Below are positions 27,077-31,303 of a stretch of 51,460 bases of DNA, piece by piece; position 1 is the stretch's first letter; each line of letters opens with the position of its first letter. This DNA comes from Parcubacteria group bacterium GW2011_GWA2_51_10. GTDB lineage: Bacteria > Patescibacteriota > Minisyncoccia > Phycocordibacterales > UBA2100. The translations under genes were made by a program, and so were the position numbers. The notes under the pieces are model-generated. The model was not told the origin of the DNA, did not search any database, and saw only the letters and a program-made list of their open reading frames with translations. Location: positions 1-51,460 of the forward strand of contig LCQS01000004.1 in the NCBI GenBank assembly GCA_001004265.1, in the 5' to 3' direction.

Positions 27077-27787
27077 ATGCCCGGCGACATACCAATTGGA
27101 GAGGCGTTTACCAATATTATATGGTACGTAGGTGAGCTCGCGTTCCGGCTTGTGCCCGGTACCATTCTTTCGCTCTCGCAAAATATTAATGATCCTGTGG
27201 CGGGTCCAGTTCCCTCTGGAATCGGGCCAATTGCTGAGCCAGTCACGACGGAGAGCGTCGTTACCTATTTGGAGCGGATATCGACTCCGGAGCAATACAG
27301 TTCACTCGTTCACAATTGGGAAATGTATGTCGCATACGTGATGGCCCTCTCGCTTGTCTTGCTGACGATTGTCATTTACTGCTCTATCCGCGTTCGCCAG
27401 CTTCGATACTGGGAGCGCAAGCAATTTGAAGCGGCGGCGCAAACAGTCGTTGCGGAAGACGTGCCGCGCACGATTCTGCGCTGGAAAAGAATTATCGAAC
27501 AAGTCTCCTCCGATAACGAGCAAAATTGGCGGCTCGCGATTCTGGAAGCGGACATCATGTTGAGCGAGCTTCTCGATAGGGAAGGGCACAAAGGTGATAC
27601 GATCGCCGACAAGCTGAAAAATGTGGATCGCGCATCATTCAACACGATTGATTTTGCGTGGGAAGGGCACAAAGTGCGCAATCGAATCGCGCATGAGGGA
27701 GCGAGCATGCATCTCACTGACCGCGAAGTGCGGCGCGTCATACATTTGTACGAGCGCGTGTTCAGAGAATTTGGGATTATTGAATAA
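27077..27787 (+). CDS. Membrane protein with a C-terminal helical domain carrying an Rx4H (HEPN/DUF4145-like) motif
   Basis: Central TM segment (YVMALSLVLLTIVIYC), then AILEADIML...AWEGHKVRNRIAHEG. Confidence 0.45.
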   Translation: MPGDIPIGEAFTNIIWYVGELAFRLVPGTILSLSQNINDPVAGPVPSGIGPIAEPVTTESVVTYLERISTPEQYSSLVHNWEMYVAYVMALSLVLLTIVIYCSIRVRQLRYWERKQFEAAAQTVVAEDVPRTILRWKRIIEQVSSDNEQNWRLAILEADIMLSELLDREGHKGDTIADKLKNVDRASFNTIDFAWEGHKVRNRIAHEGASMHLTDREVRRVIHLYERVFREFGIIE

Positions 27788-27895
27788 TCTCAACATTGTC
27801 CGGGCGGCCCGATTTGATTTACAAATGCGGAAGCCGTGGTAAAGTCTTGCGGGTATCCGGGCTATCAAAGCTCATTTTACTGATGGAGGTTCCAA

Positions 27896-28372
27896 ATGAT
27901 TGCCAAGCTGTGGGCTGCAATCGCTACGGTAATAGCCGCGGCACTGACGGTGCTGCACTTCGATAACCCGTATCCGCTCGTTCAGGTTCCCGATCGCGGG
28001 CATCGACTGTACGCCGTTCCGGCCGCACAGCATGCGCTGGTTGTGGACATTCTGAAAAGGTCAGGGCTGAGGCCCTTCGGCACTTTCACGGCCGGGATCA
28101 GGCAGACGCTGTTTGAGGACGGCATGACGGTGATCGCATCGGGCGCGGGGGTGGAGAAGGCAGCAATCTCGCTTCCGGTCGAAAATCCTCAAAAGAAAGC
28201 TGAGGAAATGAAGAAAGTTGTCCTGGCTGAATTCGGGATCGAAACGCAGCTCTGGACACCGCCCGATCCAGAATTGAAGGACAAGCTCGTCGTGCTGAAG
28301 TCCGCAAATCTTCCGCTCGACTTCGCCTACCGCCTGCCAGGCAATAAAATGCCATGGCCGAAGTGGGAATGA
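27896..28372 (+). CDS. Hypothetical secreted/membrane-anchored protein
   Basis: GGAGG SD, a hydrophobic N-terminus, and a clear terminator downstream. Confidence 0.5.
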   Translation: MIAKLWAAIATVIAAALTVLHFDNPYPLVQVPDRGHRLYAVPAAQHALVVDILKRSGLRPFGTFTAGIRQTLFEDGMTVIASGAGVEKAAISLPVENPQKKAEEMKKVVLAEFGIETQLWTPPDPELKDKLVVLKSANLPLDFAYRLPGNKMPWPKWE

Positions 28373-28392
28373 GGCGATCGACTGCCTTGCGA

Positions 28393-28422
28393 ACACTTCG
28401 GAGAGATCCGGAGTGTTTTTTT
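28393..28422 (+). terminator. Rho-independent terminator
   Basis: ACACTtCGGA-gaga-TCCGgAGTGT followed by TTTTTTT. Confidence 0.75.
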
Positions 28423-28635
28423 GCAGCATTTTGGTGCACTCTAGGGCTGGATTGACACCCTATTGCTGGCTGGCCTGCGCTTAGCCATTTGAAGAATTAA
28501 TCATCGATTCGAGAGCTCTGATGTTTTCGCTAATTGCTTCCATGGTATATAGCATATTTTCATCAATGAGGACTGAAGTTTGATTAGGGCAAGAAACCAT
28601 ATACCCCTGAAACATCAGTGTTCTTTACTGGGGGG

Positions 28636-29178
28636 TTACCGACCAAGTAACACAAGGGCCATGACACTTAAAGCGCGACCCGGGTGCACGCATAATTGTT
28701 TGTCCATTGTACTGTCCTCGAAGAAACGAGCGATTCGATCGTTATCGCTTCCACTGTCTGTTCTAAGCTTGAGAGATTTATATTTTCCGAATTCTCGCGT
28801 AAGAAAACTCTTGATATTTTCCTCGCTTACCAAATCTCCTGGCGAAGCTTGAATATCCATTTCGGCTGTGGGTAACCCGTCATATGGATAGGAGAGTGCT
28901 TTCCTGTATTGCTCAACATTTTCCGGTTTAATATTATGGACCCTTACCGCTTCGTTAAACGCTCCTTCTTCAGTTACCGTTTTTTTGATAATAAGTCCAG
29001 GATAAGCCGTTTTCATATCATTTGTAAGACTGGCTAGTTCCTCCGCTGATGATCCTCGTTGAAATATAAAAATCAAAGGACTTTTTGCCTTATCTCTCAG
29101 CCATATGCAAGAACCACTTGCACTTATCCAGAGTATTAAAAAAATTACGCCCAGCGCCATGAAGACATTTCTCATCAT
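28636..29178 (-). CDS. Hypothetical membrane-anchored protein in an AT-richer patch
   Basis: 180-aa ORF with an N-terminal TM segment and no recognisable domain. Confidence 0.45.
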   Translation of the reverse strand: MMRNVFMALGVIFLILWISASGSCIWLRDKAKSPLIFIFQRGSSAEELASLTNDMKTAYPGLIIKKTVTEEGAFNEAVRVHNIKPENVEQYRKALSYPYDGLPTAEMDIQASPGDLVSEENIKSFLTREFGKYKSLKLRTDSGSDNDRIARFFEDSTMDKQLCVHPGRALSVMALVLLGR

Positions 29179-29267
29179 CTACATTCTATCTTATTTTCTC
29201 GACACCCGGTCGAGGACGTAACTTGTTTCTCTCAGATGCAAAACCAGTCCGGCTTTCTACTATGCGT

Positions 29268-29450
29268 GTTGCGGGGGGCTAGACTCGTCGCTGCGCTCCT
29301 CTTTGAGAACCCACAGTTCTCAACGCTCGCAAGCTCGCTGCTCTCTTCCACAGGAAACTCCCGTTTCCTGGCACTTTCCCAGTCCTTCTCCCGCAACTCG
29401 CTGAAATGCAAAAATCCTCCCAAACTGAGAGGATTCTTGCTGCGAGTTGC
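29268..29450 (+). repeat. Repeat B (family R1, tRNA-fMet 3'-flank element), plus orientation
   Basis: Starts with GTTGCGGGGGGCTAGAC. Shares TCCACAGGAAACTCCCGTTTCCTGGCACTTTCCC, CCCGCAACTCGC, AAATGCAAAAA, GAGGATTCTTGCT and GCGAGTTGC with the reverse complement of 31030..31194. Confidence 0.8.
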
Positions 29451-29525
29451 ACTGGCAGGACGGGATTGGCACCTGATTCTGGTGTGGATGCGAGATGCGG
29501 CTGCAACTAGCGCTACGCCAGACTT
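29451..29525 (-). pseudogene. Degenerate remnant resembling the 3' half of tRNA-fMet
   Basis: The minus strand reads ..CAGGTGCcaatcccGTCCTGCCagtGCAACTCGC, against CAGGTGCAAGTCCTGCCCCCGCAACTCGC in the real gene. It cannot be folded into a cloverleaf. Confidence 0.35.
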
Positions 29526-29529
29526 AGTA

Positions 29530-29562
29530 CTCGCAAAATGCAACGCCCGCGTTAGCGGGCGT
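29530..29562 (-). terminator. GC-rich hairpin downstream of the minus-strand ORF 29581..29850
   Basis: ACGCCCGC-gtta-GCGGGCGT. On the minus strand it is followed by TGCATTTTG. Confidence 0.5.
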
Positions 29563-29580
29563 GCGTAGTGGCGAACTTCA

Positions 29581-29850
29581 CTACGTCCATAGATCGGCGA
29601 GTGCTTCCGGTGTCAGATCGCTCGGCGCATGCGGGACAAGACTCCCGCCGAGCCCGATTATTGCGCGAGCCTTATTGATCGTGTCCTTCGGAATCGTTTC
29701 CGTGAATGTTCCTTTGAGTGCGGAAACGAAGTCGCCTCGGCTTTGCGCATCGAAGAACGCCTGTACAACCGGGTTGGTGCTTTTTGCGTAGAACATGTGA
29801 GGGTCCTCCTCCAGGTTTAGCAGTATGTCTTTTATTTCAAAATCGGGCAT
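29581..29850 (-). CDS. Hypothetical 89-aa protein
   Basis: ORF with a downstream hairpin and no recognisable motif. Confidence 0.4.
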   Translation of the reverse strand: MPDFEIKDILLNLEEDPHMFYAKSTNPVVQAFFDAQSRGDFVSALKGTFTETIPKDTINKARAIIGLGGSLVPHAPSDLTPEALADLWT

Positions 29851-29895
29851 GTGTCAAGGCCACCAGATTTCTGGTGCAAAATGCGTCCTATTTCT

Positions 29896-29937
29896 GTTGC
29901 GGGGGCTAGACTCGTCGCTGCGCTCCTCTTTGAGAAC
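29896..29937 (+). repeat. Repeat C: truncated copy of the first ~40 nt of repeat B
   Basis: GTTGCGGGGGCTAGACTCGTCGCTGCGCTCCTCTTTGAGAAC is almost identical to 29268..29310. Confidence 0.8.
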
Positions 29938-29962
29938 TCCCATTTCGACAGTTGGGACTACT

Positions 29963-30646
29963 TCAAGAAGCGTATCCTGCGACAGCAGAAATTGAACCGA
30001 GAATCTGTCGCCGCAGTGCTGTGGCCCTACGGACTTTAACTCGAAGTGTCCCGAAATGCGTGGTCGTGTTTGTGTACACTTTGCGAGATTGCACTTTTAT
30101 GAGGCTTGCTTGAGTAAATTGTGACGAGGATATACCTGTTACGCGAGCCCAATATCTTTCAACCACACCTATACGACTCTTATGTGCCTCATTAATTGAC
30201 ACCCTCAGGATCAAATGCTTTTTAGAAATCCCGTATGTTTCAAAGACCCATCTGATAAAGGCCCGGATAATGTCAGGATTACTATTTGTAAAGCCGCATT
30301 CCTCGTTTCCTTTTTTGTAACCCTCTCCCCAGTAGAGACCGAGTCCCAACATAAAGAAGTCGCGTTTCGTAATATTTCCGACTTCACGACGACCTCTATC
30401 TTCTGCAAGTCGCGTATCGAGAATTCTTTGAGCGCGTTTCTTTTCTGATGATATTAGCCGTCCTATTCTGCCACCTGCTTCTCTTCTTTCAGCCAACCTC
30501 CGTAATTGCGCGCTGCTCAATTGAATGTCTCTGCACCAGTAGCTCACGGTACTCTTACTTGTGTATAGATCTCTCGCAATTTCATTAATGCTCCGCCCTT
30601 TCATTCGGAGCTTACAAGCTTTGTCTCGGAGTTCGACATCTGCCAT
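29963..30646 (-). CDS. HTH domain plus single-motif LAGLIDADG-like putative homing endonuclease
   Basis: N-terminal GRSINEIARDLYTSKSTVSYW (HTH). FFMLGLGLYWGEGYK then FTNSNPDIIRAFIRWV resembles the LAGLIDADG helix and following strands. Confidence 0.5.
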   Translation of the reverse strand: MADVELRDKACKLRMKGRSINEIARDLYTSKSTVSYWCRDIQLSSAQLRRLAERREAGGRIGRLISSEKKRAQRILDTRLAEDRGRREVGNITKRDFFMLGLGLYWGEGYKKGNEECGFTNSNPDIIRAFIRWVFETYGISKKHLILRVSINEAHKSRIGVVERYWARVTGISSSQFTQASLIKVQSRKVYTNTTTHFGTLRVKVRRATALRRQILGSISAVAGYAS

Positions 30647-30730
30647 CCGACCAGCATATCATAAGGTAGCTACATACATTATCGGTTGTGCAGTACTTGT
30701 GTGAATATATCGAACATGTATAGTAATAAA

Positions 30731-31029
30731 AGCGGGGTGGAGCAGTAGTAGCTCGCAAGGCTCAAATGGGCTCATTCAGCAGTAATGCTGGATGGAACAT
30801 CTGTCAAAGTCGGTGAAATCTTATTCGCAGTGCGAAGTGACAATACCGAGCCAAGTCCAGAGAGTAATCGAAGGAAAGGTGTAGAGACTAGACGGCAGAT
30901 TCCCGAACGTAAAGTCGAGGGAAAAGGTATAGTCCAGACCACAAATCTTATCCATTGGGATGAGAGCGATGAAAATCGTAGATGGAATGCATAACCTTGA
31001 GGTCGCAGGTGCAAGTCCTGCCCCCGCAA
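30731..31029 (+). tRNA. Initiator-type tRNA-Met (anticodon CAT) interrupted by a group I intron
   Basis: Exons 30731..30762 and 30990..31029 join to AGCGGGGTGGAGCAGTAGTAGCTCGCAAGGCT|CATAACCTTGAGGTCGCAGGTGCAAGTCCTGCCCCCGCAA. This is collinear with canonical bacterial tRNA-fMet. Confidence 0.8.
30763..30989 (+). ncRNA. Group I intron (IC3-like tRNA intron), no internal ORF
   Basis: P1 GCUC/GGGC with a U.G at the splice site; terminal G at 30989. GNRA hairpins CAGCA-GUAA-UGCUG and GCGAU-GAAA-AUCGU. Core strings GUCAAAGUCGGUGAAA, CCGAGCCAAGUCC, GGUGUAGAGACUAGACGGCAG and AAGGUAUAGUCC. Confidence 0.8.
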
Positions 31030-31194
31030 CTCGCAAGCAAGAATCCTCCGCAAGGAGGGTTTTTGCATTTGAATTTTGCGAGTTGCGGGGGCAGGGCCGG
31101 GAAAGTGTCAGGAAACGGGAGTTTCCTGTGGAGGAAGGCAGGGCGAAGCCCGCTGGAAAACCGTGGGTTTCCAGAATGTCTAGTCCCCCGCAAC
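31030..31194 (-). repeat. Repeat D (family R1), inverted relative to B, abutting the tRNA 3' end
   Basis: See repeat B. It ends with a second direct copy of CCCCCGCAAC (31185-31194; first copy 31021-31030). An inverted copy GTTGCGGGGG lies at 31082-31091. Confidence 0.8.
31045..31064 (+). terminator. Rho-independent terminator after tRNA-fMet
   Basis: CCTCC-gcaa-GGAGG followed by GTTTTT. Confidence 0.7.
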
Positions 31195-31303
31195 AAAAAA
31201 ACTGATAGGAACTTCCATACCATTTTTGGTATGGAGGAAGGGCTTCGAAAGGGGTCGAAAAAGATTTATTTTTAGAGACGCATACCGATAATCCCTGGAT
31301 TTT

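Follow-up and report, generated by a model that had tools for sequence, protein, structure and literature searches.

Introduction

Group I introns of bacterial tRNA genes are, to our knowledge, mostly devoid of endonuclease genes, and we know of no clear account of the route by which they spread. One way in which an intron may gain mobility is collaborative homing, which has been demonstrated for the endonuclease F-CphI and the psbA intron of cyanophage S-PM2, an intron without an open reading frame (ORF) (PMC6083498), and has been reviewed as a route to mobile introns with mention of two phages (PMC3984707). Here we analyse a 51,460-nucleotide (nt) stretch from the genome of the Parcubacteria group bacterium GW2011_GWA2_51_10, an ultra-small member of the Patescibacteria (contig LCQS01000004.1, positions 1 to 51,460; hereafter the window), in which a gene for a protein with a helix-turn-helix (HTH) and a LAGLIDADG-like domain (29963-30646, minus strand) lies divergently next to an initiator tRNA gene (tRNA-fMet) split by a group I intron that has no ORF. 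Other systems are said to share some of these features: mobE of phage T4 reportedly forms a further case of collaborative homing with the nrdB intron of the defunct I-TevIII; I-SspI (I-Ssp6803I), reportedly described by Bonocora and Shub in 2001, is said to be a PD-(D/E)XK enzyme encoded within the tRNA-fMet intron of Synechocystis and aimed at the anticodon region of tRNA-fMet; and SegB of phage T4 is reported as a free-standing GIY-YIG endonuclease in a coliphage tRNA gene cluster, with no partner intron. From comparison of sequences and loci, we consider it moderately probable that the product of the window gene is a homing endonuclease, free-standing and of a divergent LAGLIDADG type, that would act in collaborative homing with the neighbouring intron.

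Results

A gene tied to intron-split tRNA-fMet alleles

The ORF, taken from the list of open reading frames of the window, runs on the minus strand from an ATG start to a TGA stop at 29963-29965 and encodes 227 amino acids (aa), exactly as given in a preliminary description made from the letters alone; the three strings singled out there, GRSINEIARDLYTSKSTVSYW, FFMLGLGLYWGEGYK and FTNSNPDIIRAFIRWV, are present at residues 18-38, 97-111 and 119-134, respectively. The same description had placed the gene 84 nt from an intron-containing tRNA and had seen no ORF in the intron, and both statements proved correct. The divergent spacer (30647-30730) leads to the tRNA-fMet 5' exon (tRNA positions 1-33; 30731-30762, plus strand), which is followed by a group I intron of 227 nt (30763-30989, plus strand) lying in the anticodon loop between U33 (30762) and C34 (30990) and ending in G, and by the 3' exon (30990-31029, plus strand), which extends from the CAU anticodon through the discriminator A73, CCA not being encoded. 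An intron of this length is too short to have room for an endonuclease gene. It matches Rfam family RF00028 at 57.3 bits (cut-off 50) with an expectation value (E) of 5e-13 to 5e-14, its boundaries having been set by comparison with intronless alleles. The tRNA(CAU) opens at 30731 with A1 and then GCGGGG, and has the initiator-type features of A1 opposite A72 and A11:U24, with just two of the usual three G:C pairs in the anticodon stem; its sequence closely resembles that of Escherichia coli tRNA-fMet. ARAGORN does not call this tRNA-fMet because of the intron. The 5' exon is identical or nearly identical across 29 related genomes, the 3' exon gives BLAST matches to the tRNA-fMet of 48 related genomes, and the intron-less tRNA-fMet allele of one relative (G047; G and L numbers are our handles for genomes and loci) has the same exons as the window.

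The presence of gene and intron was compared in 61 genomes of the taxonomic family to which the window belongs. All seven members of the window clade found in this set flank an intron-split tRNA-fMet (G000, the genome of the window, G024, G030, G055, G023, G005 and, as a split pseudogene, G049), whereas none of the 22 intronless tRNA-fMet alleles carries a gene of the clade. Two intron alleles are without the gene (G026 and G041), with no gene remnant found by tblastn at either locus, and a contig end truncates one further locus. For the resulting two-by-two count (7 and 2 against 0 and 22) the hypergeometric probability is ~1.4e-5, a figure that overstates the evidence given the relatedness of the genomes. 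The context of the clade is constant, the gene being divergent from the tRNA-fMet 5' exon at a distance of 85-150 nt. Empty and filled sites can be told apart at one syntenic position: in the former a conserved gene (27077-27787 in the window) ends ~60 nt from tRNA-fMet, and in the latter ~700 nt with this ORF alone, convergent with the conserved gene, separate the two.

The same association was recovered at the species level. Contigs representing one genome per species hold 461 loci of the family, and a quick maximum-likelihood tree of the best 80 of them placed 64 rows in the window clade (Shimodaira-Hasegawa-like approximate likelihood ratio test, SH-aLRT, 85) and 12 in a sister clade. Within the window clade 59 genes are divergent from a split tRNA-fMet, two lie downstream of a split one and three were not picked up by the exon pattern, one of the latter having an intron by Rfam and the other two having less than ~320 nt upstream of the ORF before the contig ends. 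In all, 62 of the 64 members stand beside a split tRNA-fMet (61 by the exon search, one by Rfam) and none beside an intact one. The sister clade holds all six cases of a gene beside an intact tRNA-fMet, and those genes run into the following tRNA-Met. A group I intron was recognised by Rfam at each of the 14 loci sampled. The partner intron occupies either of two positions within this single ORF clade, U33/C34 as in the window or U36/A37 (L112, L117, L118, L124, L126 and L129 among others), as would follow if the loop were shielded from the nuclease by an interruption at any position. The wider family occurs in 30 of the 61 genomes with up to six matches per genome, some of them interrupted by stops, and four of the 80 species-level loci are split; such a patchy, multi-copy and pseudogene-bearing distribution is the signature of a selfish gene.

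A probable divergent LAGLIDADG domain behind an HTH head

The first homologue search retrieved 733 proteins at E <= 1e-3, ~225-230 aa long and unnamed or called 'hypothetical' in public records, from Kaiserbacteria, Paceibacterota and other Patescibacteria. Together with the 461 loci and a strongly conserved alignment, they put the ORF far beyond chance. Homologues align from M1, the database gene call of 213 aa starting 14 codons late. An alignment of 35 full-length family members (A1) contains 29 invariant columns, its most conserved blocks being LYWGEGYK, FTNSDP and GTLRVKVRR. The full-length AlphaFold model (predicted local distance difference test score, pLDDT, 86), with secondary structure assigned by DSSP, predicts three parts, all encoded on the minus strand: a three-helix HTH (residues 1-42; 30521-30646), a long single helix (residues 45-89; 30380-30514) and an alpha/beta domain (residues 91-227; 29966-30376), which includes the LYWGEGYK motif (residues 104-111; 30314-30337).

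In our judgement, this C-terminal part is very likely a LAGLIDADG domain of divergent type whose metal-binding residue is intact. The domain was modelled alone (pLDDT 94) and aligned exhaustively with 48,161 representative chains of known structure. The eight best chains, and 10 of the best 11, are LAGLIDADG proteins, with Z scores of 5.6-7.1 for the top eight: WhiA (7.1), I-DmoI (6.9; root-mean-square deviation, rmsd, 2.8 Å over 85 residues), the TliVMA intein nuclease (6.9), I-Tsp061I (6.1), E-DreI (6.1), I-Vdi141I (6.0) and two Thermotoga WhiA entries (5.7 and 5.6). Lower in the ranking appear I-CeuI (4.9), I-MsoI (4.2) and I-CreI (3.8), as well as PI-PfuI and PI-SceI. With the full-length model, LAGLIDADG proteins likewise come first for the C-terminal domain, and HTHs of recombinases and transposases for the head.

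A sequence profile built from 74 C-terminal domains of the family loci (A2) points in the same direction. Against all Protein Data Bank (PDB) sequences its best eight matches are all I-DmoI (E 1.4e-3), and it aligns LYWGEGYK, at the end of the LAGLIDADG helix, with the second I-DmoI motif, GLYVAEGDK, setting E108 on the Glu and K111 on the lysine three residues later. This Glu of I-DmoI is presumably the catalytic E117, and on this alignment E108 is presumed to be the metal-binding catalytic residue of the window protein. The preliminary description had made its reading of the protein depend on conservation of the acidic residue of GEG among homologues, and this conservation holds: E108 and G109 are invariant in the 35 close members of A1 and across the 74 A2 domains. 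They are equally invariant in 27 distant paralogues, where the motif reads LYWGEG, LYWAEG, LYLAEG, LYMCEG, LYIGEG or LYWSEG. In addition, the same 61 genomes encode proteins in which a similar HTH precedes a LAGLIDADG_3 domain recognised by Pfam, and hhalign joins A1 to these HTH-LAGLIDADG_3 proteins of relatives with a probability of 90% and an E of 1.8e-6 over the HTH and the first motif.

For the head of the protein, the resolvase-type HTH of the preliminary description is supported, even though in this sequence it stays below the Pfam cut-offs. The window protein itself gives sub-threshold hits (HTH_38 at E 0.0046, HTH_7 at E 0.047 and also HTH_28), with NCBIfam adding weak transposase-HTH matches alone, but HTH_38 is matched by 33 of the 35 aligned members and residues 1-42 of the model resemble SIRV1 ORF55, a serine-recombinase HTH and the IstA HTH (Z 6.0-6.9, rmsd 1.5-2.2 Å, 40-42 residues), the superposition on the serine-recombinase and IstA HTHs being 1.9-2.2 Å. 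Structural matches of the helix at residues 45-89 are limited to generic coiled coils; in the model it links the HTH to the nuclease-like domain and it is possibly a dimerisation or spacer element.

Relatives at other tRNA genes and in viral contigs

Nearly every copy of the wider family in the 61 genomes touches a tRNA gene. At 19 of 30 loci a same-strand tRNA stands at the end of the frame, which stops no more than 40 nt away from it or reaches up to 35 nt into it, the tRNAs abutted being Met, Gln-UUG, Ile-UAU, Arg-CCU, Gly, Trp and Ala; we estimate, from a few dozen tRNA genes per ~0.8-Mb genome, that such a position would arise by chance in well under 1% of cases. The genome of the window has a second, 30% identical member (contig C1:2708-3385, locus L002:1486-2163) that ends 20 nt before a same-strand tRNA-Ala(GGC). 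In many paralogues (L010-L032, L146-L163) the frame enters the downstream tRNA by 7-35 nt, and an overlap of 7 nt places the stop codon on tRNA positions 8-10. As this overlap leaves no space for a separate promoter, it suggests that the mRNA is the 5' leader of the tRNA, which RNase P would release.

Genes with a canonical Pfam LAGLIDADG_3 domain abut tRNAs as well (L199-L213, in G020, G027, G037, G038, G043, G051-G056 and G059). Some, with a double motif and ~230-240 aa, lie between tRNA-Met and tRNA-Asp, the frame running 7-12 nt into tRNA-Asp at three loci and stopping 4 nt short of it at one; HTH-first genes of 285 aa start 0-1 nt after tRNA-Lys(UUU); and the frames of others finish within tRNA-Leu or tRNA-Tyr. 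Large IMG/VR contigs (L173-L193, 15-527 kb) also carry remote relatives of the C-terminal domain in their tRNA arrays, 20 of these 21 loci holding tRNAs. The arrays of these viral contigs are dense, with up to 19 tRNAs in 4 kb. A tblastn search of cultured phages gave no match.

Overall, free-standing LAGLIDADG genes seem to use the tRNA genes of these organisms as a general landing zone. It is tempting to speculate, tentatively and at somewhat less than even chances, that the window gene belongs to a large, unnamed superfamily of LAGLIDADG-type, free-standing homing endonuclease genes in Patescibacteria and large phages, of which it would form one branch. Each branch would be locked to one tRNA species, and the branches would jointly drive the spread of the ORF-less tRNA group I introns, of which these bacteria have many. 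The tRNA species seen with branches of the family are fMet, Met, Gln, Ile-UAU, Arg-CCU, Gly, Trp and Ala, and those seen with canonical LAGLIDADG_3 genes are Asp, Lys, Leu and Tyr. The genes often end on U8-A9-G10 of the tRNA as a stop codon and would probably ride on the tRNA transcript.

Surroundings of the locus

In the 84-nt spacer a promoter scan gave one promoter-like match per strand, no more than in shuffled sequence. In most orthologues a block of approximately the form ATATCAyrAGGTAGCTA (plus strand; 30655-30672 in the window, also in L066, L079 and L090) is found 10-25 nt upstream of the start codon. It may serve as a promoter element, or the HTH of the protein itself may use it as an operator.

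The 3' flank of tRNA-fMet, named R1, occurs in three copies or part-copies in the window (29236-29560, 29896-29946 and 31036-31200). The true flank carries a terminator hairpin at 31037-31066, the inverted copy at 29236-29460 has 64-nt arms that are 88% complementary, and a 46-nt piece of R1 directly follows the stop codon of the ORF. Since an R1-like sequence is the plain tRNA-fMet 3' flank in G047, which has neither gene nor intron, the window looks rearranged, perhaps by inversion or duplication between copies of the flank; such inverted tRNA-flank repeats may reflect locus rearrangements related to selfish nuclease genes. A decayed 3' part of a tRNA-fMet, followed by its own copy of the flank, is found at 29451-29525 (minus strand); one can still recognise its T-arm, acceptor and flank, at 88% over 32 nt, but its anticodon-stem region is scrambled. 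It could be the relic of a second, uninterrupted tRNA-fMet.

Between the conserved gene and the endonuclease-like gene the window holds ~2.2 kb (27788-29962) that are common to no other locus, comprising ORF158 (27896-28372), ORF180 (28636-29178; with an N-terminal membrane anchor), the repeat copies and ORF89 (29581-29850). None of the three ORFs matches a Pfam family or has a homologue at the ~190 other family loci fetched, which excludes them as parts of a conserved module. This stretch is probably a genome-specific insertion.

Discussion

The gene-only state is never seen in the window clade and the intron-only state does occur, which is the pattern that collaborative homing predicts. In the mechanism that we propose, the protein, with one LAGLIDADG domain per chain, would act as a homodimer on the intron-less tRNA-fMet gene at its anticodon stem-loop. 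By nature the anticodon stem (CAAGG...CCTTG) forms an inverted repeat, which would suit a symmetric dimer, and both intron positions fall within the 7-nt loop. The intron would split the target site in the own genome, rendering the chromosome immune, and repair of a cut intron-less allele from the donor would copy the intron into the break. The nuclease gene, whose start lies ~116 nt and whose end lies ~800 nt from the insertion site, would often be co-copied, only if the conversion tract were long enough. The intron would thereby shield the host of the nuclease, and the nuclease would give mobility to an intron that has no ORF. The most likely picture is of a single selfish homing unit in which gene and intron spread jointly. 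The preliminary description had suggested two targets for the protein, the intron-less tRNA allele and the R1 repeat. The first agrees with the strict tie of the gene to intron-bearing alleles, cleavage itself being a prediction, and for the second we found nothing in favour, R1-like sequence being an ordinary tRNA-fMet 3' flank in the genome that has neither gene nor intron.

Several of our results weigh against this reading. The Z scores of the domain model fall in a range that the aligner calls 'middling', with 80-93 of 140 residues aligned, and the model has an extra helix between strands 3 and 4, its order being helix, strand, helix, strand, extra helix, two strands and helix. The search of LAGLIDADG families proposed in the preliminary description gave no match to Pfam LAGLIDADG_1, _2 or _3 at E <= 1 in the window protein and 34 relatives, and the window protein has no match to LAGLIDADG_WhiA. 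Foldseek searches of the PDB with the full-length and domain models returned no row at E <= 0.001, the weak top rows being OmpA/MotB-like with rmsd of 7-10 Å. A single-sequence search of PDB sequences gave no match, and the A1 profile gave four weak rows there, none of them LAGLIDADG and three of them short HTH-type matches to residues 4-44. The C-terminal domain alone reached E values of 0.043 and 0.15, not significant, when compared by hhalign with canonical LAGLIDADG_3 alignments, and WhiA, a domesticated non-nuclease, is among its best structural matches. The single LAGLIDADG-like motif that had been noticed in the letters is backed by the profile match to the second I-DmoI motif and by the eight top folds, but not by Pfam or Foldseek, and its scores are moderate. 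As regards the locus, the genomes compared are related and their gene-intron counts not independent, the linkage would be equally predicted by a role in splicing, and the closest homologue of the first search is merely 61% identical, so that no recent transfer is visible.

The linkage to the intron could indeed reflect domestication, the LAGLIDADG protein binding nucleic acid but not cutting DNA and serving either as a maturase that aids splicing of the tRNA-fMet intron in trans or as a WhiA-like regulator of the tRNA cluster. Organelles have LAGLIDADG maturases, a maturase would likewise be confined to intron-bearing loci, and WhiA, which combines the fold with an HTH, heads the structural ranking. 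However, in two genomes an essential tRNA carries the intron although the gene is absent, so that the gene is not needed for splicing, and the patchy, multi-copy and pseudogene-bearing distribution is unlike that of a housekeeping regulator. WhiA is not known to retain the catalytic acidic residues, and in the window family the Glu aligned with the second I-DmoI motif is invariant even in paralogues beside intron-less tRNAs. We regard domestication as unlikely.

It is also improbable that the C-terminal domain is not LAGLIDADG at all and that an HTH protein of other function merely sits at tRNA loci. The missing Pfam match, the OmpA-like rows of Foldseek and Z scores below 8 speak for it, but LAGLIDADG proteins take the first eight places among 48,161 chains, an independent sequence profile picks the I-DmoI motif with the acidic residue in register, and canonical LAGLIDADG_3 genes are also HTH-first and tRNA-abutting.

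Alternatively, the protein might be an active free-standing homing endonuclease with its target elsewhere, at an intergenic site upstream of tRNA-fMet or in nearby sequence ('intronless homing'), the intron being a linked passenger. The gene is an optional insert in the ~60-nt spacer between the conserved gene and tRNA-fMet, and most paralogues stand at intact intron-less tRNA genes, whose immunity would come from the insertion itself or from site differences. Simple linkage should nevertheless leave loci with the gene and without the intron, of which there is none in the 22 intronless alleles or the 64 clade members, and two intron sites with one ORF clade fit protection of the anticodon loop better than hitch-hiking, so we give this explanation little credence.

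A nuclease-type gene that stands beside an intron and never, within its clade, beside an uninterrupted tRNA-fMet offers a directly testable answer to the question of how such introns spread, and collaborative homing here would extend the process beyond phages into the cellular genomes of a very large radiation of bacteria. The proteins, if they are active, would be compact HTH-LAGLIDADG enzymes whose natural targets in tRNA genes are long and conserved, in a family for which annotation says just 'hypothetical'. The tRNA clusters of Patescibacteria would moreover be hot-spots of selfish nuclease genes, with a bearing on genome annotation, and if the superfamily proposed above is real, a partner would be supplied for ORF-less tRNA introns that have been regarded as lacking one for their mobility. 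In the full-text literature we found no paper describing the family or tRNA-linked LAGLIDADG genes in Patescibacteria.

Set against described systems, the window gene shares different features with each. Like segB, it is a putative free-standing homing endonuclease gene among tRNA genes, and relatives of its family lie in the tRNA arrays of viral contigs. With I-SspI it would have in common a target in the anticodon region of tRNA-fMet and a group I intron in the same loop, but the window gene is outside the intron and its product has another fold. WhiA (DUF199) also unites a LAGLIDADG fold with an HTH; it is, however, a conserved housekeeping regulator with two degenerate domains and a C-terminal HTH, whereas the window family has one domain, an N-terminal HTH, an invariant Glu and a distribution that is patchy (30 of 61 genomes), multi-copy and marked by pseudogenes. 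I-CreI, I-CeuI and I-MsoI have one LAGLIDADG motif per chain, as the window protein does, from which a dimer on a near-palindromic site would be expected; they are intron-encoded, are without an HTH and score lower against the window domain. I-CeuI also has Glu in place of Asp. At the level of the domain, I-DmoI, one of the archaeal or intein LAGLIDADG_3 endonucleases, is the best profile match, with the motif Glu and Lys in register, and is also among the matches in fold. Unlike the window protein, which has one domain, an N-terminal HTH, a 45-residue helix, an extra core helix and no Pfam match, I-DmoI is a two-domain monomer encoded in an rRNA intron.

At the level of the arrangement, the closest system is the collaborative (trans) homing of F-CphI and psbA (PMC6083498; PMC3984707; PMC2790892). 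A homing-type endonuclease beside an intron rather than inside it had been called unusual in the preliminary description, but collaborative homing in cyanophage S-PM2 is a precedent (PMC6083498; PMC3984707). In both cases the nuclease gene, here a putative one, lies outside, next to a gene whose group I intron does not itself encode a functional nuclease. In the phage, self-cleavage is prevented by the intron, and the allele without an intron is cut by the nuclease at the site of insertion; the gene studied here is found only beside intron alleles, and some alleles have the intron only. The phage system acts on a protein gene in a phage with an endonuclease VII-like or HNH enzyme, whereas the present, putative one is in a cellular bacterium, at a tRNA gene, with an HTH and a LAGLIDADG-like domain, and its pairing is conserved across many Patescibacteria lineages as opposed to a couple of phages. 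What would be new, by this comparison, is the architecture of the nuclease and the setting of collaborative homing in cellular bacteria and on a tRNA gene, the mechanism itself being known already.

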